30,626 bases of DNA, taken from IMG/VR virus record IMGVR_UViG_3300043579_000184, positions 99,315-129,940 of that record, one strand, 5' to 3'. Within the stretch, counting starts at the first letter, position 1, and each line of letters starts with the position of its first letter. The notes beneath the pieces were generated by a model. That model was not told where the DNA came from. It was given only the letters and a program-made list of their open reading frames with translations, and searched no databases. The position numbers and the translations under genes were made by a program. Of the stretch, positions 1-11,100 are shown piece by piece. This DNA is from a virus.

Positions 1-125
1 TCAACGACGGTCGCGACTACGAGGTGATGTTCCAGCCGGACTACTTCGCGGCGTTCACCCTGCTGCAGTTGACCCAGCGCAGCCAGATCGGCCAGCCGCA
101 GACGAACCCGCGCACGGCGTACTGA
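1..125 (+). CDS. 3' end of probable head-closure/head-tail connector protein (partial)
   Basis: Frame 3 is open from the window edge: NDGRDYEVMFQPDYFAAFTLLQLTQRSQIGQPQTNPRTAY*, TGA at 123-125, 1 nt before the next ATG. The 'DGRDYEV' strand and the position upstream of an HK97 gp10-like gene fit a head-closure protein. Confidence 0.45.
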   Translation, partial: NDGRDYEVMFQPDYFAAFTLLQLTQRSQIGQPQTNPRTAY

Positions 126-126
126 G

Positions 127-732
127 ATGCCCTGCTTCCTCATCCCCATTCACGAGTCGAACGACTGCCACAACCCGGGCGGTAACCCGGACGGGGGACG
201 GTTCTGCTCCGGACCGGGCGCGGGCGGAACCCACGCCGGGTCGCATCTGGTCCGGCCGGGCGAGACCTACGACCTTCGGGCCGTCCTGACCGGCACGCGG
301 CTCTTCCTGTTCAACCCGTCCACCGGGCAGCTCGCCGTCGGAGACGCGGGGCGGGAGGACCGGACCCATGCGGAGGTGCTCGCCAACGCCGCGACCGCGC
401 AGCCCGCCGGGGCCCCGCGCGCCGACTACGACCGCTTCCGGATCCATGGCTACTTCACGGTCCGCAACGGCCAGCCGGAGGTCGAAGTCCTCCGCATCGC
501 GGCCAGCCCGGAGGTCGCCGATCAGGATCTGTACGCGGCCCGGGTGGACCAGCTCGACGCCTTGGAGGAGATGGGCCCCCGCTTCGCCGCATGGGGCCTC
601 CCGCCGGAGACACCGATCACGGTGGCGGGCTTTGGCAAGAAGGGCCTGCGCGGCCGCACACTGGGTACCGCGTTCCCGGAAGCCTACCGGGCCCACACCA
701 AGGCGACCAAGGCCAAGCGCCGGGCGGCATAA
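127..732 (+). CDS. Conserved-leader cargo protein 1 (leader + unknown domain), 201 aa
   Basis: Starts MPCFLIPIHESNDCHNPGGNPDGGRFCSG, a leader shared with four other ORFs. The rest has no motif I recognise and ends in a basic tail (KATKAKRRAA). Confidence 0.8.
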   Translation: MPCFLIPIHESNDCHNPGGNPDGGRFCSGPGAGGTHAGSHLVRPGETYDLRAVLTGTRLFLFNPSTGQLAVGDAGREDRTHAEVLANAATAQPAGAPRADYDRFRIHGYFTVRNGQPEVEVLRIAASPEVADQDLYAARVDQLDALEEMGPRFAAWGLPPETPITVAGFGKKGLRGRTLGTAFPEAYRAHTKATKAKRRAA

Positions 733-733
733 T

Positions 734-1717
734 ATGCCGTGCTTCCTCATCCCGCTGCACGAATACAACAAGTGCCATGACCCGGGCGGCACGCCGGAGG
801 GCGGGCAGTTTTGCTCGACGCCCGGGTCGGGGTCGGGTCTGAAGAACTACCCGCGCCCTGAAGGTAGCCGGGACATCCCGGACTTCTTGAAGCAGGACGT
901 GCTCAACGCGGCGCGGGCGGGCATCGTGGTCCGCCACCATCAGCAGCCGGAGCCGGTGCTGGATATCGCGGGCGTGCTCCATGACCCACTAGCCCTGAGT
1001 CACGCGCGGGGCGGCACGGAGACGTTCTCCAGCAAGGGGGTCTACGGGCTCATCGCCCCGCGCGGCGCGATCCGGATCATGACGCGCGGCGGCGAGTTCG
1101 AGCCGACCGTCGAGGTCTGGGGTAGCTCCGGCTACCCGCAGGGGCGCAAGAAGAAGGAGCTGACCCCGGAGATGCTGCCCGCCGAGCTGCGGGCGACCGT
1201 CCACGATGTGCAGTCCACCTTCCGGCACGAGGTCGGCCACCTGATGGACGACGAGTCGAGCTGGCCAAAGAAGGGCGCGAAGTACGACACCGAGATGCAG
1301 CGCGAGGTGCGCGCGTGGGTCTACGCGGTCGAGATCAGCCCGGACCACACCGTCAGCGAGCGCATGGTGCGTAACGGACTCATGTCGCATGCGTATGGGT
1401 CGTTCCGCAAGGCGCAGATTCTGACGGACGACGAGCACCGGTACGTCCAGCGGCAAGGCTGGATGGACCAGCAGGAGACGTTGGAGCGCATCGTCCAGAA
1501 CGAGTCGAAGATGGGGGTCGTTAACATCGAGGCGCACCGCAAGGCCGAGGCGTTTACCAACCGGGTGCTGAGGGCGCTGGTCAACTACGGGAAGGTGCTC
1601 ACCCGGAAGGGCATCGTCCGGGTGCCGCAGGCGAAGGATCCCTACTTTCCGCTCGCGGACAAGCGCCGCTTAATGCAGCCGGGGCCGGGCCAGCACGCAT
1701 GGCCGGGGCTGCTCTGA
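734..1717 (+). CDS. Conserved-leader cargo protein 2, HExxH zinc metallopeptidase-like, 327 aa
   Basis: True start is ATG 734, 1 nt after TAA 730-732 (not 368). Leader MPCFLIPLHEYNKCHDPGGTPEGGQFCS. FRHEVGH at 1226-1240 with downstream EMQREVRAW (candidate third Zn ligand). Confidence 0.8.
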   Translation: MPCFLIPLHEYNKCHDPGGTPEGGQFCSTPGSGSGLKNYPRPEGSRDIPDFLKQDVLNAARAGIVVRHHQQPEPVLDIAGVLHDPLALSHARGGTETFSSKGVYGLIAPRGAIRIMTRGGEFEPTVEVWGSSGYPQGRKKKELTPEMLPAELRATVHDVQSTFRHEVGHLMDDESSWPKKGAKYDTEMQREVRAWVYAVEISPDHTVSERMVRNGLMSHAYGSFRKAQILTDDEHRYVQRQGWMDQQETLERIVQNESKMGVVNIEAHRKAEAFTNRVLRALVNYGKVLTRKGIVRVPQAKDPYFPLADKRRLMQPGPGQHAWPGLL

Positions 1718-2946
1718 TGCCCTGCTTCCTCGTGCCGCTGCACGAGTACAACGACTGCCATGAGCCGGGCGGCCAGCCCATTGGCGGGCGGTTCTGCGGC
1801 AAGGATGCGTTTGTCCCGAGGCCGCCGAAGAAGCCATTGCCGTTCACACGGACGCCCACGGTCGCGGACTATTACTCGGCGAAGGTGTTCATGACGCCGC
1901 ACGAGCAGCACGGCTGGGAAAAGCTCCAGCGGGAGGCTATGGAGACCCGGCTGGCGCTGAACAGGGTGGAGGAAGCCACGCTGCGGGCCGGTGACCCGTT
2001 CGGGCTGCTCAAGCGGGACGCGGTCAAGAACCTCGATACACCTGAGCTGACGCACCTGCGTCACCGGCACGAGGCGCTCGCGACCCAGATGCGGGACTTC
2101 GCCGACGAGGTCGCGCGCCGGGGCGTGATGCAGATCGCCAAGGAGCTGGACTTCCCGCCCGAGAACGTCCATATCATCAGCAACCCGAAGGGGCGCATGT
2201 TCGAGGTGGGTGGGAAGCAGTGGGAGGAAGGTGGGCATTTCAGCCCGGGGACCGGCGTGGTTCAGATCAACATCGCGACCTCGCGGGGCCTCGGGCTGGT
2301 GCGGCTGGTCGCGCACGAGATCGCGCACGCGAAGTTTGAGGTCTGGCGCTCCGCGATGGATCAGGAGTCCGAAGTGCTCAAGGACTGGGAGCCGGTCGGT
2401 CTGAAAGACCTGACCACCCGGAACCGCACCCCGTGGAGCGCCAGCGGGGAGGTGCGGCCGGAGTTTCGCGCCGAGTTCCGCCGCCGCTTCCCGGCGCACG
2501 CGGCCACGGCCGATACATGGGGCAGCGCCTACACAGCTACCAGCCTGTCGCGGCAGATGCAGGAGGACGACGGCTTCACCGATTACTCGAAGGCGTACTG
2601 GGCCGACGCGAATAACCCAGCGAAGCAGCAGCACTACATGTACACGAGCCACACGGGCCGTCAGATGATGGGCTCGACGCTCTACACTGCTGTCAACGAG
2701 ACCCTGTCGGAAGTCGCAGCATGGCGGGTCGCGCGGCGAATGCAGCCGGGGCCGACGCCCGCCGCGAGCCGGGCGGCGCAGTGGGCCCAGCGGGCCGGGA
2801 GTCCGCAGATGAAGAAGCTCTTCCTCGGCCAGCGGACGCGGACTATCGGTATGGAGAAAGCGACTCGCGAGCCCGGGCCGTCCAAGGCGTGGCGGAAATT
2901 CTCAGCTAGGATCAACCAGTTCTACCGCGCCCATGGCCGCACCTAA
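1717..2946 (+). CDS. Conserved-leader cargo protein 3, HExxH zincin metallopeptidase-like, 409 aa
   Basis: TGATG overlap at 1715-1719. Leader MPCFLVPLHEYNDCHEPGGQPIGGRFCG. VAHEIAH at 2314-2328, then GFTDYSKAYW...VNETLSE. Confidence 0.8.
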   Translation: MPCFLVPLHEYNDCHEPGGQPIGGRFCGKDAFVPRPPKKPLPFTRTPTVADYYSAKVFMTPHEQHGWEKLQREAMETRLALNRVEEATLRAGDPFGLLKRDAVKNLDTPELTHLRHRHEALATQMRDFADEVARRGVMQIAKELDFPPENVHIISNPKGRMFEVGGKQWEEGGHFSPGTGVVQINIATSRGLGLVRLVAHEIAHAKFEVWRSAMDQESEVLKDWEPVGLKDLTTRNRTPWSASGEVRPEFRAEFRRRFPAHAATADTWGSAYTATSLSRQMQEDDGFTDYSKAYWADANNPAKQQHYMYTSHTGRQMMGSTLYTAVNETLSEVAAWRVARRMQPGPTPAASRAAQWAQRAGSPQMKKLFLGQRTRTIGMEKATREPGPSKAWRKFSARINQFYRAHGRT

Positions 2947-3100
2947 ACTCACCGACGTAATCATCGACGGCAAGCCGGGGAAGCTCGCCTACTTCGACGC
3001 CGCCGGGCGGATGACCACGCCCGACAAGGCCGTGCAGGCCAAGGTGGTCTTCGAGGACGGCTCGCACCTGTGGCTGGTGCCCGCCGACCGCGTCTCATGA
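2933..3100 (+). CDS. Small hypothetical protein, 55 aa (not in ORF track)
   Basis: MAAPKLTDVIIDGKPGKLAYFDAAGRMTTPDKAVQAKVVFEDGSHLWLVPADRVS*. Fills the gap exactly, overlaps the upstream stop, and its TGA overlaps the next ATG (ATGA 3097-3100). GC-rich third positions. Confidence 0.75.
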   Translation: MAAPKLTDVIIDGKPGKLAYFDAAGRMTTPDKAVQAKVVFEDGSHLWLVPADRVS

Positions 3101-3465
3101 TCCCCCTGACCCTTGTGTGGGAGGGACTGGAAAACGTCCTCAGCGACATCGACATGAAGCTCGACGCCGCCAAGCAGGTCGTGCGGGACGACCTGAAGGA
3201 GTTTGGCATCGGCGCGAAGGGCGAGATGGTGATGACGCACACGTTCCAGAACCGGACTTTCCAACTGGAGCACAGCATCGGCTTCTCGCAGGACGAGGAT
3301 GTCAGCGTCACGGTCTTCGCCATGGCCCCGTACGCCAGCCAAGTCGAGTTCGGGGTGCCCGGCCACAGCCGCCCCTACCCGTTCTTCTGGCCGGTCTGGT
3401 TCAAGTGGCTCACCCTGCTGGAGGAGAAGCTCAAGGACGACTGGCCGCGTGCATGGCACGGGTGA
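3097..3465 (+). CDS. HK97 gp10-like neck/tail-completion protein, 122 aa
   Basis: Motifs RTFQLEHSI and APYASQVEFG...RPYPFFWP are typical of the HK97 gp10 family. ATGA-coupled start. Synteny in the connector module. Confidence 0.75.
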   Translation: MIPLTLVWEGLENVLSDIDMKLDAAKQVVRDDLKEFGIGAKGEMVMTHTFQNRTFQLEHSIGFSQDEDVSVTVFAMAPYASQVEFGVPGHSRPYPFFWPVWFKWLTLLEEKLKDDWPRAWHG

Positions 3466-3499
3466 GGGATGGGTAGAACGGATCACACAGGAGGGCGTG

Positions 3500-3718
3500 A
3501 TGGCAAAGCAGCAGCCGGGGAATCGCGGGAAAGTGGTGCCGACGGAGCCGACCGAGCAGACGGAGCCGGAGGCCGAGGCGGAGGAAGTCACCTGTGCCAT
3601 TTGCGGCGAGCCGGGGGTCGAGGGAGCCGAGCACGCCGCCACCGACGCGCACGGGATCCACAACGTCACGGCCGAGGCCGAGGGGAACCGGCAGCGGTCG
3701 AGTCGTCGCGAGTCGTAA
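3500..3718 (+). CDS. Small acidic protein with CxxC...H...H motif, 72 aa
   Basis: AGGAGG RBS at ~3489-3494, ATG 3500. MAKQQPGNRGKVVPTEPTEQTEPEAEAEEVTCAICGEPGVEGAEHAATDAHGIH... Confidence 0.7.
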   Translation: MAKQQPGNRGKVVPTEPTEQTEPEAEAEEVTCAICGEPGVEGAEHAATDAHGIHNVTAEAEGNRQRSSRRES

Positions 3719-3721
3719 GAC

Positions 3722-4207
3722 ATGCACACCGAGACCAGCACGGTCACCGAGCACGTCACGCCGGGGCTCGCCCCGGCGCGACTGCTCACGCCCGCCATCA
3801 CGCTCAAGCGGCTGCTGGTCTCGACGGTCAGAAACGACCCCGACTGCCGGAGGCTCTTGGGCATCCGCAATAACGCGGACGACCCGCGCATTTATGCGTA
3901 CTACGCCCCGCTGGCCGTGGTGGATGAGCAGCGCCCGGCCTACATCACCTACGCGCAGACCGGGTTCCCGGAGCGCTACGCGGCCACTGGCGACCCGGTC
4001 TTCAATCTGGCCATCTGGGGCCTGAGCTGGGAGGCGGTCGAGCCGGTGCGCGAGCGGATGCTGGCGCTCTTCGACGCCAAGCTGCTGGTGACGCAGACCG
4101 GGCGGAAGGTGTTCGGGATCGTCCTGCTCCAGCACGACAACTATCAGGAGAACACCAAGTTCGCGAGCGTCGTGGTGCAGGTCCGCCTCGGGTTCTCGCA
4201 GGTCTGA
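3722..4207 (+). CDS. Tail terminator/tail-completion protein (SPP1 gp17/DUF3168-like), 161 aa
   Basis: LxxLxxxxxxDPxxxxLLG...RIY...AP...P.YITY pattern and position after the gp10-like gene. Confidence 0.65.
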   Translation: MHTETSTVTEHVTPGLAPARLLTPAITLKRLLVSTVRNDPDCRRLLGIRNNADDPRIYAYYAPLAVVDEQRPAYITYAQTGFPERYAATGDPVFNLAIWGLSWEAVEPVRERMLALFDAKLLVTQTGRKVFGIVLLQHDNYQENTKFASVVVQVRLGFSQV

Positions 4208-4209
4208 GG

Positions 4210-4599
4210 ATGCCGACCTTCCTTGTCCCGCTCTACGAGTCGAATGACTGTCACAACCCAGCCGGGCCGGACGGCGGGCAGTTCTGCGGGAAGTCCGGGA
4301 GCCGGACGGTCCATCCGGACGATGTGAAAACCGAGCGTCCGATGGCAGTCGCCACGGGCGGCGCATCGATCATCGCCCACCATGCCGCCGGGCGAATGCC
4401 GCTCGACGCGGCGAAAGTGAAGCGGATGGAGAAGGCGATTCGCGCGGGGGAGTCGTTCGACCCGTTGGTGGTCCGCGAGGATGGGGTGCTCAGAGACGGC
4501 CATCACCGGCTGCAGGCGTACCGGAACGTCGGCACGAAGTCGATTGAGGTCGTGTCCGAGGACGAGGCGAAACGGCGCAAGCTCAAGTGGCGGGTGTGA
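4210..4599 (+). CDS. Conserved-leader cargo protein 4, ParB/Sulfiredoxin-like N-terminal domain, 129 aa
   Basis: Leader MPTFLVPLYESNDCHNPAGPDGGQFCG. C-terminal KVKRMEKAIRAGESFDPLVVREDGVLRDGHHRLQAY has the ParB/Srx DGHHR signature (4495-4509). Confidence 0.85.
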   Translation: MPTFLVPLYESNDCHNPAGPDGGQFCGKSGSRTVHPDDVKTERPMAVATGGASIIAHHAAGRMPLDAAKVKRMEKAIRAGESFDPLVVREDGVLRDGHHRLQAYRNVGTKSIEVVSEDEAKRRKLKWRV

Positions 4600-5096
4600 T
4601 GCCGGTCTTCCTCGTCCCGCTCTACGAGTCGAACGACTGTCACAATCCGGCAGGGCCGGGTGGCGGGCAGTTCTGCTCGACGGGCGGAGTAGCCGAAGCG
4701 CTCGGCAAGGTGCGCGTGGTCGAGGAGCCTCGGACGCCGAGCCCGGACCATCCCGAGGCGCACCAGCACGGCGACCGGGTCATCGTGTCGCACAAGTTCC
4801 ATCAGCTCACGCCGGAGCAGCGGTACCACGTCCTGCTGCACGAGCTGGGGCACTGGTTCCGGGAGCGGTTCGTCCCGCTCGCGGACATCATGGGGTGGGA
4901 GCAGGGCGACAAGTTCTACGACCTGTTCGCCGCCGGTAACTCGGAGGAGGGCTGGGCCGAGGCGTTTGCGGTCTTCGCCAGCCACCCGCAGGAGCTGAAG
5001 GCCCGCTACCCGACGCAGTTTGCGGCCCTGCGGGCGCTGGTGACCGACGACGACGTGGCACAGGTGCAGGCGTTCGCCCGGAAGCACAGCCGATGA
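4599..5096 (+). CDS. Conserved-leader cargo protein 5, compact HExxH zincin peptidase, 165 aa
   Basis: TGATG overlap at 4597-4601. Leader MPVFLVPLYESNDCHNPAGPGGGQFCS. LLHELGH at 4839-4853 and NSEEGWAEAFA (E..AE motif). Confidence 0.8.
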   Translation: MPVFLVPLYESNDCHNPAGPGGGQFCSTGGVAEALGKVRVVEEPRTPSPDHPEAHQHGDRVIVSHKFHQLTPEQRYHVLLHELGHWFRERFVPLADIMGWEQGDKFYDLFAAGNSEEGWAEAFAVFASHPQELKARYPTQFAALRALVTDDDVAQVQAFARKHSR

Positions 5097-5596
5097 ACGA
5101 CTACACGACCTTCACCAAGCGGACGGTCGAGACACTTCGCGACAGCCTGCCCCCACAGGGGTGGACCCCGCTCGACGTGCGGAAGGGCATCTGGAAGCCC
5201 CGGAACCTGTCGCCGTTCGAGCGCTACATGGCCTACGTCGCGCCGCCGCTCGACAACCCGTGGACCGAGCGCCGAATCTCCACACGGGAAGTCGCTTACA
5301 TCCTGACAGCGCACGTCTTCCTGCTGGTGAAAAGCTACGACGACGGCGAGGAACTGTCGGTCTACGGCGACACGGCCCCCGATCTGGGCGTCTTCCAGTT
5401 CATCCACGACGTGAAGGTCATCCTCCGGGGCACCGATCTGGGCGGCTTGCTCGACCGGACCCACAACGAGACCATGGGCGGCACCCGCTTCGAGACCGGC
5501 GCGTCCGAGGGGTTCGACACCGGCGGTCACGGCTGGGTGCACCGGGCGATGCTCACTTACACGGTCCAGACGGCCCCCTTCTGCCCGCCGACGTAG
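5093..5596 (+). CDS. Virion structural protein, probable second tail-terminator-like protein, 167 aa
   Basis: ATGA-coupled, lies directly before the major tail gene, size and alternating helix/strand pattern fit lambda gpU-like terminators. Confidence 0.5.
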   Translation: MNDYTTFTKRTVETLRDSLPPQGWTPLDVRKGIWKPRNLSPFERYMAYVAPPLDNPWTERRISTREVAYILTAHVFLLVKSYDDGEELSVYGDTAPDLGVFQFIHDVKVILRGTDLGGLLDRTHNETMGGTRFETGASEGFDTGGHGWVHRAMLTYTVQTAPFCPPT

Positions 5597-5659
5597 AGCG
5601 TTTGTGACCCGGTTCAGACAGGGCGAGAACCCGGAACCCTTCACCGAGGACAAGACACC

Positions 5660-7072
5660 ATGGAATCTGCTGTTGGCATTCAGTGGGCCTACTCGAACAA
5701 GCGGCAGTCCGCCTACCCGGTGCCGAACCCGCCCGAGGACATCGACCAGTCGCACCCCTTCGAGGGCACCGACATCGGCGACCACACGGTCAACATGGTC
5801 GATAACGCGGAGCTGTACGGCAAAGGGCACGAGTTTGCGACCCGCGAATACCTGCTGTCGTGGGACACGCGCTTCCGCCGCCAGACCTTCCTGACCTCCA
5901 AGATGGCCGGGTGGGGCTTTGCGTTCCACAGCGGCAAGGTCACGACCAGCGCGCTGGGCGGCGGCGCGTTCCAGCACATCTACGAGTATCAGGATCCGAA
6001 CGGAGCCGGGTACTACGGCTCCGGCCGCCAGCTCCCGGTCACGACCATTGTCGAGCGGGTTACCTCCGGGCTCATCCGGCGCTTCCCGTCGATGCTGGTC
6101 AGCGCCATCGAGCTGAGCGGCGCGATGAACGACTTCTGCCGGGTCGCGATGGATCTGGTGGGGTCGGGCGCGATGAACCGGCTGCCGACCAGCGGCTCGG
6201 TCGGCGGCTCGGCCAAGATTGGCGGCGGGGCGGACGGCACGGTGACGGTCACCGACGACGTGGTCGGCGACTCCGCCAAGACCATCGAGGTCGTGGTCGC
6301 GCCCGGGGTGAGCGCGTCCATGGCGGCGGCGATCACCGGCGACGACATCACGGTGACGCTCGGGACCGACGTGACCGGGGCCCCGGACCCGGCGAAGAAC
6401 ACGGCTACGCTGGTGGCGGCCGCCGTCGAGGCGCTGGCGGGCGTGACCGCTGTGGCCAGCGGCACCGGGGCCGACCCGATCACCGGCAGCTCGCCGCCCA
6501 AGGGCTTCACCGGCGGCGGCGTGGCGTTTGTCTTCCCGACGGGCGAGGACGCCAACGAAGGCGAGCGCCTCCGCAACACGGCGATGCTGTTTCAGGTCGG
6601 CGAGACCGGCGACCTGCAGGACGTGAGCTGCGACATCCGGAGCTGGCGCTTCCGCTCGGAGTACTCGCTGGCGGACGTGGACGGCTACTGCCCCGGCTCG
6701 GGCTACTTCGTCCCCGGCGACCCGCTGAGCGGACAGGTCCGCAACAAGCTGGAGTTCCTCCGCCGGGCCGTCATGCTGGAGTGGGTCATCCGCGCCTCGG
6801 CCGACAACACCATCTTCACGCAGTTGGAGCAGCTCGTGAATCTGGCGGCCACCATCACCCTGACGGGGGCGGCCATCACCGGTAGCTCGGCGTACCACGA
6901 AGTCAAGATCAACGTGCCGCAGATCAACTACCGGGCGATCCCGATTGGGGTGGACGGCGACCTGATCACGTATTCCCTGCAGACGGTCATCCGCTGGGAC
7001 GACACGCTGCAGAACCCGTGGGAAGTCACCATCAAGAACGACACCGACCAGTATCTGGCCGCGTCCGTGTGA
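5660..7072 (+). CDS. Major tail tube protein with internal inserted Gly/Ala/Thr/Val-rich domain, 470 aa
   Basis: GAGGA RBS. Lies between connectors and chaperone/TMP genes. Beta-rich tube-like N- and C-parts, followed by a strong hairpin as for highly expressed structural genes. Confidence 0.75.
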   Translation: MESAVGIQWAYSNKRQSAYPVPNPPEDIDQSHPFEGTDIGDHTVNMVDNAELYGKGHEFATREYLLSWDTRFRRQTFLTSKMAGWGFAFHSGKVTTSALGGGAFQHIYEYQDPNGAGYYGSGRQLPVTTIVERVTSGLIRRFPSMLVSAIELSGAMNDFCRVAMDLVGSGAMNRLPTSGSVGGSAKIGGGADGTVTVTDDVVGDSAKTIEVVVAPGVSASMAAAITGDDITVTLGTDVTGAPDPAKNTATLVAAAVEALAGVTAVASGTGADPITGSSPPKGFTGGGVAFVFPTGEDANEGERLRNTAMLFQVGETGDLQDVSCDIRSWRFRSEYSLADVDGYCPGSGYFVPGDPLSGQVRNKLEFLRRAVMLEWVIRASADNTIFTQLEQLVNLAATITLTGAAITGSSAYHEVKINVPQINYRAIPIGVDGDLITYSLQTVIRWDDTLQNPWEVTIKNDTDQYLAASV

Positions 7073-7098
7073 CCTTCGCCAGCACCGACCCGGCCGGA

Positions 7099-7134
7099 GG
7101 CGGGGGGCTTCGAGCGGAGCCCCCCGTCGTTTGT
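7099..7134 (+). terminator. GC-rich stem-loop after major tail gene (partial terminator or mRNA stabiliser)
   Basis: CGGGGGGCTTC (7101-7111) pairs with GGAGCCCCCCG (7116-7126) with one G-U pair, followed by a weak T tract (TCGTTTGT). Confidence 0.55.
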
Positions 7135-7228
7135 ACCCCCCTCAGTAATCCGTCGGTAGCCTGTTTCCTACAGTAGGCCCGCTTCCGGGGTGCGGCCCCG
7201 GTCAAGCACAGACGTAGGAGGCTCCACC

Positions 7229-7717
7229 ATGCCAGCGGTCCGTTCCAACCCCAAGATCGTCACGCGCGCCGATCACGCGATCATCCAGAGCAAGATCCAC
7301 CTGCAGGGCACCGAGGACTATGCGGTCGTCATCCAGAAGGGCAAGGGCTTCTGGAACAAGTCGATCCACGTCTTCAGCCGCCAGCCGTCGCAGCGCGAGC
7401 TGCAGACCTTCGAGGAAACCAGCAGCCGCCTCAAGTTCAAGGGGCAGAAAGCGGAGATGGAGGGCTCGCCCATCTTCGCGGCCGCCGAGCTGTACAACCG
7501 GCTCATCGACCGGGTCTACGACGTGCTGGTCGGGGTGCAGTCCCACGAGCGGATGAACAGCGAGCAGGCCCGGACGTTCGTGCCGCCGCTGGTGAAGCGC
7601 GAAGCCATCCGGGAGTTCACGGCCGAGGTCTACTCGGCGTCCCGCATGGAGGAGGCCGAAGGCATCAGCGAGGGCAAGGACGACGAGGACGCCGAGCCCG
7701 ACGCGGAAGCGGGGTAG
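7229..7717 (+). CDS. Tail assembly chaperone (gpG-like), 162 aa
   Basis: AGGAGG RBS at ~7216-7221, ATG 7229. Lies between the major tail and TMP genes. Acidic C-terminus. Confidence 0.7.
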   Translation: MPAVRSNPKIVTRADHAIIQSKIHLQGTEDYAVVIQKGKGFWNKSIHVFSRQPSQRELQTFEETSSRLKFKGQKAEMEGSPIFAAAELYNRLIDRVYDVLVGVQSHERMNSEQARTFVPPLVKREAIREFTAEVYSASRMEEAEGISEGKDDEDAEPDAEAG

Positions 7718-8094
7718 CCCGCGCCACGGGCCTGCGGGCCACCATCCGGGCGTGGCTGCTGGAGGGACGGAAGAAGGAGCTGGGCGACCCGCCCATCACG
7801 CCGCCGACGCACAACCGGCGGCTGATGGGGCGGATCCAGTTCCTGCTCCGGATTGAGTCGCTCATCAACGTCGGGTGCAAGTACCAGCCGGACGACTTGC
7901 CGCCGCGCGTGTGGGACGAGCTGATCGCGATGGCGCTGGAGCGGCAGTTTGTGGACCGGCTGGTGGACCAGCGGCGGAACAAGAACCGTCAGCAGGACCG
8001 GGCGATCAATCAGGCCCGCAAGCAGACGGGCCTGCCGCCGCCCGGGGGGACGCTGTTCAAGCACTCGCGTCCCTTCAAGGGGAGTACGACGTAA
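7711..8094 (+). CDS. Tail assembly chaperone extension (gpT-like), probably reached by -1 frameshift
   Basis: The -1 frame is open across the TAG at 7715 and reads GVARATGLRATIRAWLLEGRKKELGDPP...MGRIQFLLRIESLINVG... to TAA 8094. No good RBS before ATG 7825. Confidence 0.6.
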   Translation, partial: GVARATGLRATIRAWLLEGRKKELGDPPITPPTHNRRLMGRIQFLLRIESLINVGCKYQPDDLPPRVWDELIAMALERQFVDRLVDQRRNKNRQQDRAINQARKQTGLPPPGGTLFKHSRPFKGSTT

Positions 8095-8119
8095 GCCGTT
8101 CAGAAGGTAGTACGACCTA

Positions 8120-11100
8120 ATGGCTGCGATTCTGGCGACGGTTGACATCGAGGATCTGGCGACCGCCAAGGTCAAGGGCATCAAGGATGCCCTGACCGAT
8201 CTCGTCCAGACCCAGCAGCAGCTCGCCGCCAGTAACGCCGCGCTCGCCTCCGGCACGGCGGGGGTCATCGCGTCCATGGGCGCGTCGGCGACCACCACCG
8301 GGACGGCGGCCAAATCCCTCGCCGACTACGTCGCCAAAATCGCCGCTGCTGTGCCCGTGGTGCAGCAGGCCGCCACCGGCATCGCCGCGCTCGGCCTCCA
8401 CATCCAGAACCATCAGGCCGCCATGCAGGGGGCCGCGCAGATCCTCACGGTGTACGGCGGAGGGCTCGCGGCGGTGGCGCAGGCGGCCCGCGACGGCTCG
8501 GCCCCCCTGCAGGCACAGGCGTCGGCCCTGTCGGAGCTGGCCGATGCCGCGAATGCCGGGGTCGTCGGGCTGAAGGAGCACGCCGGTGCCCTGAACGCCA
8601 TGATGATGCAGGTCAGTCAGGGCGTCCCGCTGACCAAGGCGCAGGCCGAGGCACTGGATGAGATGGCGGCCGGGCTCGCTGACGCCAACCGCGAAGCACT
8701 CGGCGCGGGCACGGCGATGCAGCAGTTAGCCGCGCAGCAACAGCAAGCGACCGCCGCCATCAAGGAGAGCTACAGCGGGCTCCAGCTCCTGACCAGCCAG
8801 CTCACCGAAGGCGTGACAGTCACCAAGCTGCAGGCCGACGCGCTGGCGGAGTTGTCAGCCGTCGCTCAAGCGGGGAACGGGTTCACCAAGGAGCAGGCCG
8901 CGACCCTCGCCGAGCTGTCCACGGCCCTGAAGGAAGGGGTGACCCTGACCGCCGAACAGGCCGCTACGCTGGAGAAGCTCACCGCCGAGTACGCCGCCGC
9001 GAACGCGGCCACCCTCGGGTTCAAGCAGGCGACGGAGCAGACCGCCACCGCTGTCGAGCAGCTCCTTGCGGTCCAGCGTGAGGAAGAACAGGCGATCCGC
9101 CAGACGTACTCGGCGCTGGAGCTGCTGAGCGACCAGATCAAGGCCGACACGACGCTGACGCAGGAGCAGACCTCGGCTCTCCGGGAGTTGCAAGCCACCC
9201 TGTCGGCGCAAGGGTTCGGGGCGGCAGCCAACACGCTAGGTGAGCTGGCGGAGGCGGGCGAAAAGAACGAGAAGGCCACGGAGGGGCAGACGGAGGCGCT
9301 ACAGAAGGTCTCATCGGCCTACGGGGACGCGCACGAGGGGGCGCTCAATCTCAAGGATGTGACGACCGCGAGTATCGGCGTCTTCGACAAGTTCCATATC
9401 TCGGCGACCCTTGTCGCCGGGGTGCTCGGCGTCCTCGGGGCGTCGGCCTTGCACTACGCCGAACAAGCCTCCCATGCAGCGGCGCGGTCCGAGGTGCTCA
9501 ACGACGCGCTCAACATTACCGCCAAGAACGCCCACCAGAGCAACCTCGCCATGCTCGTGGCGTCGGAGCAACTCAAAGACCACGGGGTCATCTCCGACGC
9601 AGCGGCCGAGTCGGTGATGAAGCTCGTACAGGCGGAGTTGAGTCTGGCGGACGCAGGCAAGCTCGTCCAAGTGGCCCAGAACGTCGCGGTTATCTCCGGG
9701 ACCAGCGTGACCGATGTTATGGAGCGCCTGACCCGCGCGGTCGAGTTCCAGTCGGTCCGGATGCTGAAGCAGTTCGGGATCATCGTCAACCTGCAGAAAG
9801 CCTACGCGGACTACGGTCGGGAGATCGGCAAGGAGGCCAAGAACCTCGATGACCTCGAAAAGAAGCAGGCCCTGCTGAACGCGGTTATCGAGAAGGGGTC
9901 GAAGTTTGCCGGGGCCCATGAAGCCGCGATGGACCGGGTCGGCGTGCGCTACGAGTCACTGACCAAACTCGCCGACGACGTGCTCGCCAAGGTCGGCGAA
10001 GGACTCCTGCCGGTCTTCAACAAATGGGTCACTGTCCTCAAGCTGCTCTACGAAGCGTTCCTCACACTGTCTCCCGGTGCCCAGCAGGCCACCTCGGCCC
10101 TCATCGTGTTCTTGGCGCAGTTGGCCTTGATCGGCAGCGTGTTGACCGGAGCCAAACTGCTGGGCATCACGAACCTGTTCGCGCAGCTCGGCCCGGCTGT
10201 GACCGCTGCCGGGGCCGCGATGACAGCGGCTCGGTCGGGGGTTGTTCCCTTGACCTCCGCGCTCGGCCTCTTGAAGGAAGGTGCAACCGCGAATGTGGCG
10301 GCGGCTGGACTGCTCCGCACCGCATGGGTCGGGATCGTCGCGTTCTTCGGCAGCTCGGTGACCGCTACTATTGTCCTCGTCACCGTCGCCATTGCGGCGC
10401 TGACGGCGGCGTACACCTACTTCACCAGTGGTCAGGAAGAAACGATCCAACGGAGCGTCGAGCATGTGGCGTCGGTACAGAAGGAGATCGACGCCATTCA
10501 CGATCTGGTCGGTGAGATTGGTGACATGACCACGACGGTCAACGGGCACCTGAAGGTGATTGACGATTCGACAGAAGGGCAGGAAGCCTATAACCAGAAG
10601 CTGAACGACCTGATCCGGCTCGTGCCCGATGCGGTTAAGTCCATCGACGCGATGACTGGCGCGTCGTATCTGAACCGTGACGCTATCGACGCGATGACGG
10701 CGTCGATGGAGGAGTACCGCAACGAGCTGCGCGAGACCGCCCGGACCATGCTGCCCACGACCGAAGCTGCTGCCGCTGCGGCCAAGGCCGCCTACGACGC
10801 GATCAAATCCAATCTGGACAACGCGCGAGCCCACGCCGACGCCCTGCAGGCCATTCCGTGGCGGGAGATGACTGACGCCCAGCGGCAGGATCTGGCGGTC
10901 TCCCTGAAGCGGGTGACGGCGCTCGACGCGGAGCTGAAGAAGCTCCACGACCGGAACGTCGCCGCACAGGCCAAGCTGGCGACCGACAAGGCGCTGACGG
11001 ATAGCACAAACGTCTCGATGACGGCGGTCTCCAACCTCAACAAAGCGTTCGCGGCACAACGTGCGGAGTTGGTTTCGGCCGCCGGGGGCGCGGATGCGTT

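Follow-up and report, generated by a model that had tools for sequence, protein, structure and literature searches.

Why should genes inserted among the neck genes of a phage, with products that share almost nothing else, all begin with the same short peptide? The question was raised by a window of 30,626 nt (the whole stretch of DNA that was analysed), i.e. bases 99315-129940 of the 129,940-bp IMG/VR record IMGVR_UViG_3300043579_000184, rated complete by CheckV. Five open reading frames (ORFs) in this window, all on the plus strand, open with a common N-terminal tag of 26-27 residues with the consensus M-P-x-F-L-[IV]-P-[LI]-[HY]-E-x-N-x-C-H-x-P-x-G-(1-3)-G-G-x-F-C. The initial annotation had described five leaders whose similarity ends with the final Cys, and this was borne out by the alignment of the five proteins, in which 16 of columns 1-27 are invariant and almost no conservation is seen past Cys27. 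A Gly/Ser-rich linker directly follows the last Cys of the tag, and each gene carries one payload only. The five genes, here called wA to wE, are the following (window coordinates):

127-732, plus strand: candidate cargo gene wA, 201 residues; tag at 127-207 (27 residues), Gly-rich linker, alpha/beta payload of about 160 residues and a basic C-terminal tail.
734-1717, plus strand: candidate cargo gene wB, 327 residues; tag at 734-814, then an HExxH payload (H165-E-x-x-H169).
1717-2946, plus strand: candidate cargo gene wC, 409 residues; tag at 1717-1797, then a 380-residue payload with HExxH (H200-E-x-x-H204).
4210-4599, plus strand: candidate cargo gene wD, 129 residues; tag at 4210-4287 (26 residues), then a ParB/Srx-like domain with a DGHHR motif.
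4599-5096, plus strand: candidate cargo gene wE, 165 residues; tag at 4599-4676 (26 residues), then a small helical metallopeptidase-like payload with HExxH.

The family turned out to be larger than first described, as five tagged genes are indeed present in the window but the whole genome has 15, all on the plus strand between 66.5 and 104.4 kb and together making up 8.9% of the genome. Nine copies are located at 66.5-78.5 kb, upstream of the portal gene, and the five in the window lie among neck genes. The remaining copy begins at the portal stop codon (81858), and the site right after the portal is the usual position of MuF genes. None of the 15 was found in the 62 kb of early and replication genes. 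In 12 of the 15 the protein starts exactly at M-P-x-F-L, and three have 10-15 additional N-terminal residues. Head genes recognised in the genome are the portal (79834-81858), a head maturation protease (84499-85953), the C-terminal half of which is acidic and scaffold-like, and a Mu gpT-like capsid protein (86566-87594). MuF itself (PF04233) had no match anywhere in the genome at E<=1, and no Pfam MuF match was obtained in the five proteins.

What is conserved in the tag is the peptide. Among 12 canonical leaders, nucleotide identity amounts to 78% over codons 1-19, compared to 32% in the next 57 nt and 28% in the 57 nt upstream. At least two synonymous codons are used at nine out of ten invariant tag residues, and third codon positions are variable in 16 out of 19 cases versus five out of 19 for second positions. 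Since the synonymous codons vary, selection acts on the tag peptide, the conservation of which is old and exceeds by far what chance would give. An RNA or DNA element, as well as recent duplication or gene conversion, could be ruled out, as synonymous sites are scrambled and the longest identical run between any two leaders is 24 nt.

By searching 1.84 billion representative proteins with a hidden Markov model (HMM) of the 15 tags, we found 400 clusters at E<=1e-3, 93 of them at E<=1e-10. Among the best 150 of the 400 clusters, about 108 carry just one copy, at the N-terminus (in 69 of these, Cys-His is located at residue 14), and about 40 have either two to nine copies or an internal copy, at a spacing of 92-878 residues (median 271). 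Internal copies are found one ahead of each enzyme module of polyvalent-type proteins, e.g. in P0001 (2992 residues), where nine tags precede every recognised module (Tpt1, ART-PolyVal, a reprolysin-like zincin, TopoIB and an ADP-ribosyl exotoxin domain). The Pfam families counted among 130 tagged representatives were ART-PolyVal (13), GNAT (10), ADPrib_exo_Tox (3), zeta (2) and TopoIB (2), the majority having no family. Related IMG/VR contigs harbor 3-13 copies each and, wherever the context is visible, tagged genes adjoin portal, protease, capsid or neck genes. An HMM search had been suggested in the initial annotation, and its outcome agrees with what was anticipated there, i.e. mostly N-terminal matches with varied payloads beside head and neck genes.

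In several of these proteins the tag is physically joined to head proteins. P0147 consists of a Phage_portal_3 domain at 44-392 followed by six tag copies, P0093, the gene of which directly follows Portal_Mu, contains a MuF domain (604-715), and in P0022 the ART and GNAT modules are followed by an XkdF-type S78_2 prohead protease (960-1077). P0132 has a protease of this type as well (483-600), with a tag just behind it at 616, and further contains a 2H-phosphoesterase and a PI3/4-kinase-like domain, and P0109, with three tag copies, is encoded directly after a 1025-residue portal. The portal of P0147 was considered as a relative of the portal of the present phage and is unrelated to it in sequence. 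In the N-terminal parts of the multi-copy proteins, PHROG searches identified payload-type domains only and no anchor domains. Fusion to portal, MuF and prohead protease, which are classic capsid-internal proteins, constitutes the strongest contextual evidence for tagged modules inside capsids. Because the HMM matches are mostly N-terminal, the payloads varied and the genes adjacent to portal, protease, capsid or neck genes, virion cargo is the best-supported reading of the tagged proteins.

A quite different view would be that the tag has nothing to do with virions and acts inside the cell as a regulatory peptide for late accessory enzymes, e.g. as a degron, a chaperone or secretion signal, or in co-translational control. 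The placement of the tagged proteins in particles is indeed deduced from genes alone, and the genes could be morons that are expressed late and have been inserted at junctions that tolerate them. This explanation is nevertheless very unlikely, as it accounts neither for the fusions to portal, MuF and prohead protease, nor for the restriction to head and neck modules, nor for the polyvalent-type payloads (ART-PolyVal in 13 of the 130 representatives). Furthermore, the conservation is at the level of the peptide and not of the RNA, and the tag was found neither in plasmids, where tblastn gave chance-level matches only (E>=4), nor in 185,579 representative bacterial and archaeal genomes, where a single spurious match shared only M-P-Q-F-L-V-P-L-H-E.

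The leader had not been recognised as a described family when first noticed, and the searches are in line with this. No Pfam family (LPD or other) covers the tag, a full-text search of the literature for GGQFC-type strings returned nothing relevant, and among cultured phages there was no tblastn match for the tagged proteins or the bare tag, P0132 being matched via its payload and protease domains only, and no blastn match to window positions 1-8000. A term search of the paper on polyvalent proteins (PMC5512222) brought up no recurring inter-module peptide, and one of the MuF-toxin paper (PMC5576092) no tag-like motif. The tag itself thus appears to be undescribed, whereas the strategy that it would serve is already known from T4, P1, MuF toxins and polyvalent proteins.

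Of these, T4 offers the closest model. Its capsid targeting sequence (CTS), present in IPI-III, Alt, gp67 and gp68, directs proteins into the scaffolding core and is then removed by the prohead protease (PMC3012670; Mullaney and Black via PMC9024508). The reading towards which we lean, with a confidence somewhat above even, is that the tag is a CTS-like docking and cleavage tag for capsid cargo that is later injected. The five genes would accordingly belong to a set of 15 capsid-cargo genes, each combining the short tag with the Gly/Ser-rich linker and a single enzyme. The enzyme would be docked by its tag, late in infection, onto the core of the assembling prohead, most likely, by analogy with the T4 CTS, onto the protease/scaffold protein, and the prohead protease would then cut at a charged residue (Glu10 here). 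The enzymes would remain in the head, enter the next host with the DNA and act as early effectors, among them peptidases, a ParB-like protein, TopoIB and a zeta kinase. In polyvalent chains, or in those fused to portal, MuF or protease elsewhere, the tag would be a cutting joint. We infer packaging, the docking partner, cleavage and injection from the tag family, its conservation and spread, the diversity of its payloads, its head and neck context and its fusions, all of which were observed directly. Shared with the T4 system are a short N-terminal peptide common to unrelated, fast-evolving anti-host proteins with genes in the head module, and a run of hydrophobic residues that closes with [LI]-x-E at residue 10 (in each of the five window genes this word occupies residues 8-10). 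In contrast to the CTS, the tag is 27 residues long, much more conserved, equipped with an invariant Asn and a Cys-His...Cys loop absent in T4, and also found internally, two to nine times, in polyproteins. The heads differ as well, the capsid here being Mu gpT-like, with no T4-type S77 protease or gp22 core detected.

Two parts can be distinguished in the tag, namely a hydrophobic strand, the last residues of which read L-x-E-x-N, and a loop with the pattern C-H-x-P-x-G...G-G-x-F-C. Rather than a folded domain, it is a linear and flexible motif. AlphaFold2 (AF2) assigned it a predicted local distance difference test score (pLDDT) of 31-66, even with a 69-sequence alignment of the tag, and modelled the payloads confidently. 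Judging from these models, the low scores would suit a peptide that becomes ordered only on binding. The position of Glu10, four residues before Cys-His, is occupied by E, K or D across tag copies, and in 31 out of 33 proteins or genomes with several copies this residue is uniform, in contrast to positions -6 and -1, which vary (permutation P<5e-5). Such uniformity fits one lineage-specific partner that reads the residue, e.g. the S1 pocket of a protease. Lys is the residue after which HK97-type S78 proteases cut, and Glu that after which the T4 gp21 protease does, and the two K-flavour contigs with a visible protease both have S78_2 proteases. A 581-aa protein of the D-flavour contig L032 was tried as a homologue of the protease of the present phage and rejected (hhalign probability 5%), so that the link between flavour and protease family comes from the two K-flavour contigs only. 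That the tag is a portable load-and-release code of many unrelated tailed phages, with E, K and D flavours matched to the protease specificity of each lineage, is a more tentative proposal, to which we give rather less than even credence.

Similar words occur in the proteins that a prohead protease might process. Across 24 aligned sequences of the capsid protein, no variation is seen in L39-x-E41, and N43 is 90% conserved (DLHETN here), which is the P-L-H-E-x-N word of the tag, located where a propeptide would be removed. The protease/scaffold protein has [LF]-x-E-S words at 14-17, 404-407 and 461-464 in at least 90% of the sequences of a 28-sequence alignment. For comparison, the P1 capsid protein is cleaved at E120|S121 (PMC9024508). 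A candidate second tag copy in the protease/scaffold protein (L017:499-1953, residues ~328-340, G-H-L-P-G-G-A-G-K-F) was conserved only in the five closest relatives and is probably a coincidence.

The most invariant residue of the tag is Asn12, present in 177 out of 178 copies. Together with the acidic residue and the His it could make the tag a self-reacting peptide, undergoing autocleavage by Asn cyclisation or forming an isopeptide bond to a Lys of the capsid protein, and the E-x-N word at the N-terminus of the capsid protein and the Lys-Asn-Glu chemistry used by HK97-type capsids would agree with this. Yet the acidic residue is replaced by Lys in many lineages, the tag does not resemble intein/HINT or pilin-type isopeptide domains, and no structural model supports a catalytic arrangement; we therefore consider such chemistry extremely unlikely.

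The two Cys residues covary, with C-C in 166 copies, Y or N paired with A, S or T in nine, C-T in three and Y-C never. As they covary, and as Cys-less copies coexist with Cys copies, we read the pair from these patterns as a probable stabilising staple or metal site and not as an essential catalytic feature. The same covariation could be taken to mean that the tag is a retention or ejection handle which comes into play once assembly is complete, by tethering cargo to the DNA, the capsid wall or the portal, or by preparing it to unfold and thread through the tail, and has no part in loading. If Glu10 is cut, the Cys-His...Cys loop would stay on the mature protein and need a post-assembly role, and the portal-fused chains would place tags at the portal crown. 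On the other hand, the tag has no DNA-binding or known metal-binding signature and no confident AF2 structure, and one phage has copies that do without the Cys pair beside copies that have it, which makes a handle of this kind quite unlikely.

The leader had been proposed to be an N-terminal address label, and this holds for part of the family only, as most copies are N-terminal and in a head or neck context but about 40 of the best 150 clusters have internal copies, and some chains are already anchored through a portal, MuF or protease domain. Since anchored chains need no separate address and internal copies precede modules, the tag would also, or instead, act as a joint or processing site. 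Taken to its limit, this means that the tag is a proteolytic joint only, at which the prohead protease or a co-encoded zincin cuts polyvalent precursors, and that the copies in the present phage are carried-over remnants, packaging being achieved by other means. The internal copies sit exactly between modules, chains already anchored to portal, MuF or protease are still tagged, zincin-like payloads are frequent among tagged genes (three out of five here), and zincin-mediated processing of polyvalent proteins has been proposed by Iyer et al. (PMC5512222). A remnant would decay, however, yet in the 15 free-standing copies purifying selection has kept 10 residues invariant. After gene fission a cut site could sit on either side of a module, but the tag is never C-terminal, being always followed by at least 31 residues (median 188), and it therefore belongs to the module downstream. 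Free-standing copies also conserve the segment M-P-x-F-[LT]-x-P, which internal copies lack. This would tentatively fit an additional docking role where no anchor is fused, an argument weakened by the fact that the HMM favours the segment. A joint without any loading function is, on balance, unlikely.

Several points nonetheless weigh against a docking and cleavage tag. No cultured phage carries the tag according to tblastn, leaving virion membership to be judged from genes. The identity of the protease stems from one PHROG match (phrog_15531, E 2e-11) and has no Pfam or PDB support, and the candidate sites of the protease itself do not have the invariant Asn, which leaves Asn12 without explanation. 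If the cut is made at Glu10, the conserved Cys loop would remain on the mature cargo, where no role can be given to it, and the Cys pair is dispensable, as Cys-less (N/Y with A/S/T) and Cys copies coexist in one phage. The E/K/D uniformity may stem from inheritance from a common ancestor copy and not from a partner. The h-x-E-[SA] word is short, and the capsid match to L-[HRY]-E-x-N alone has a chance expectation of about 1-3% over the proteins inspected. Moreover, the distant relatives L045 and L046 keep the capsid word as L-R-E-A-[TN], yet have no canonical tag within 10 kb of the capsid gene.

Two further resemblances of the tag were observed. In L045, the capsid protein of which is 57% identical, two genes (L045:2680-3573 and L045:19075-20340) have a divergent Cys-less leader, M-P-G-[MI]-I-C-L-L-R-E-A-x-W-E-E-x-x-H-P-R-D-E-x-G-x-F, that aligns with the tag at M1, P2, L8, E10, G24 and F26; one of them encodes DUF3626 and is situated between the portal and a true MuF gene. 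On the basis of this alignment, the tag may be part of a wider H-P-x-x-x-x-G-x-F leader family. The tag core N-x-C-H-N-P-G-G-x-P-x-G-G-Q-F-C (window 157-216, and other tags) resembles the kringle word N-x-C-R-N-P-D-x-x-x-G-P-W-C, with matches to the HGF chains 7ocm and 7ocl (E 0.003-0.004), although no single stretch passes alone. This likeness is probably a convergence on a turn-rich loop.

As for the payloads, Pfam, PHROG and PDB sequence searches gave no match that explained those of wA, wB and wC. The payload of wA, listed as an unrecognised domain in the initial annotation, folds confidently in the AF2 model (pLDDT 85-93, tag <50), and no convincing match to a known fold was obtained (Foldseek E>=0.03; best Z 5.5 in a wide VIA-align search). 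Both tag and payload are shared with its homologues P0120, P0043, P0042, P0055 and P0073. The claim of three different zincins held in so far as HExxH is present in wB, wC and wE, which have no mutual similarity outside the tag, and is invariant in their homologues (P0077 and P0103 for wB, P0065 and P0113 for wC); fold and feature matches, however, were weak and obtained for wE and wB only. The wB payload is probably a zincin, and the nearest folds to its Atlas model are U49, M48 and M3 peptidases, at a weak template modelling (TM) score of 0.3-0.4 that serves as a lead only. For wC the putative assignment comes from the motif only, its Atlas features giving weak peptidase leads. wE matched the phrog_87 metalloprotease family (E 0.0014) and yielded an AF2 model with a mean pLDDT of 81 (payload ~90, tag 56-66), for which the top Foldseek matches were all zincins (CapP, lethal-factor family, PPEP, PprI and ArdC), albeit weak ones (E 0.09-0.7). 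The ParB/Srx assignment of wD is supported by 11 PHROG families of the ParB-like, nuclease or methylase-N types over residues 56-127, the best being phrog_1033 (E 2.1e-7, residues 65-118); in Pfam, wD had no match at E<=0.1. Payloads encoded outside the window include a zeta-toxin kinase (E 1e-21), TopoIB (E 4e-19) and weak matches to RelA/SpoT and a SAM lyase.

These repertoires invite comparison with other phage systems. Polyvalent proteins comprise 2-15 effector domains per polypeptide and are predicted to be packaged, proteolytically processed and delivered with the DNA (Iyer, Burroughs, Anand, de Souza, Aravind 2017, PMC5512222). The payload repertoire (ART-PolyVal, zincin peptidases, ParB-like, TopoIB, GNAT and kinases) and the head-gene context are the same, and the tag-bearing P0001 is a true polyvalent protein. 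The present phage, in contrast, encodes each module as a separate gene, and polyvalent elements include conjugative ones, whereas the tag was not found in plasmids. In P1, the N-terminal 30 residues of DarB suffice to load this large anti-restriction enzyme, and a reporter, into the capsid, and the Dar proteins have no consensus N-terminus (PMC9024508). Several cargo proteins per virion and a capsid protein cut at E|S would be points in common with P1; here, by contrast, 15 proteins have one strong consensus, which also recurs in 400 clusters from many phages. The MuF polymorphic toxins (Jamet et al. 2017, PMC5576092) likewise combine a constant head-associated N-terminal part with a variable C-terminal enzyme and are encoded directly after the portal, and the tagged chain P0093 contains a MuF domain, but the constant part here is a 27-residue peptide instead of a MuF domain of ~110 residues, and no immunity genes are evident.

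Outside phages, encapsulins have cargo-loading peptides that are short, conserved, disordered and terminal, and that load varied enzymes into an HK97-fold shell. The tag is similarly a short, conserved, disordered terminal peptide on varied enzymes. Encapsulin peptides are, however, usually C-terminal, have another consensus, bind the shell protein itself and involve neither proteolysis nor delivery to another cell.

Injected proteins carried in the capsid are the first weapons to reach the host defences and are hard to spot from sequence, the targeting peptide of T4 being short and lineage-bound and the Dar proteins of P1 lacking a consensus, so that a strongly conserved and searchable tag would change their recognition. 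If the docking and cleavage reading is true, hundreds of candidate injected effectors, most of them of unknown fold, could be picked out of metagenomes by the tag, which would also show how giant polyvalent proteins divide into modules. Polyvalent proteins, MuF-toxin fusions and T4-type internal proteins would then be connected as variants of a single strategy. Should the portable-code proposal hold, the 400 or more tagged clusters, most of them without a known domain, would form a catalogue of injected effectors, and the 27-residue peptide might be used in the engineering of phages in laboratory strains as a compact tag for loading chosen proteins into capsids.

The tagged genes had been placed between head-tail connector genes, and their neighbors are indeed conserved neck-region genes, but with only weak matches to connector families. 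These neighbors, and a small untagged ORF, are listed below (window coordinates):

3-125, plus strand: 3' end of the conserved 243-aa gene g98708; left border of cargo slot 1.
2933-3100, plus strand: untagged 55-aa ORF after wC, resembling the N-terminus of a tagged 407-aa protein in contig L032.
3070-3465, plus strand: conserved neck gene, weakly HK97 gp10-like (PF04883, E 0.034); bounds cargo slot 1.
3722-4207, plus strand: conserved neck gene, 161 aa, no family; left border of cargo slot 2.
5093-5596, plus strand: conserved neck or tail-completion gene, weakly Mu gp37-like (PF08873, E 0.017); right border of cargo slot 2.

The gene order runs capsid ... g97757, g98708, (wA, wB, wC), 55-aa ORF, gp10-like gene, g103036, (wD, wE), g104407, g104974, and a 2426-aa tape measure protein and an endolysin are encoded farther downstream in the window. 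The window genes are separated from their neighbors by spacers of 1-2 nt or overlap them as TGATG or ATGA, e.g. the start of wC with the stop of wB (TGATG). Given this tight coupling, and since no plus-strand promoter or terminator was found in window positions 1-8200, the cargo genes of the window belong to the late structural transcript. The 55-aa ORF matched the L032 protein in tblastn (38% identity over 47 aa, E 3.7e-6); in L032 the 407-aa protein comes after a portal-cargo fusion, and the ORF-like region runs straight into a tag copy. By this similarity, the ORF may encode a small cargo-associated domain.

The two slots were compared with those of three relatives, L047, L030 and G004, with capsid proteins 60-66% identical. 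All three have homologues of g98708, which follow the capsid gene, of the gp10-like gene, in the same order, of the 161-aa gene and, at 37-41% identity, of the gene at 5093-5596. This backbone order is kept, while the contents of the slots differ. Slot 1 of L047 contains a single tagged gene and its slot 2 is free of them, whereas in L030 slot 1 is free and the single tagged gene is in slot 2. In G004, slot 2 contains one tagged gene, and a gene with two tags lies between the gp10-like gene and g103036. A homologue of wB is present in G004 at another locus. With the same neck backbone, different cargo in the relatives and the displaced wB homologue, the tagged genes thus seem to be mobile cassettes for which the neck operon provides fixed junctions. 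In G001 (IMGVR_UViG_3300011441_000037), a near-identical strain, the portal, terminase-like and protease proteins are 99.7-100% identical to those of the present phage, compared to 92-99% for the tagged proteins (TopoIB 92.5%, g77704 92.1%), which hints that the cargo may evolve faster than the structural genes.

Lastly, some features outside the window were noted. In L045 and L046, blocks of glycosyltransferase, methyltransferase, radical-SAM and sugar-epimerase genes directly follow the capsid gene and replace the neck cargo. Between the capsid and neck genes of the present genome, at 87.6-97.7 kb (L017), there are some 10 kb with a 956-aa PKD-domain protein and several minus-strand genes, a stretch absent from the same position in G004, L030 and L047. 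A 268-aa protein encoded at 88565-89371 of the genome (L017:4565-5371) ends in a PEP-CTERM motif (PF07589, E 2.4e-6), which points to a Gram-negative, exosortase-bearing host rather than an actinobacterium, despite a G+C content of 67%.

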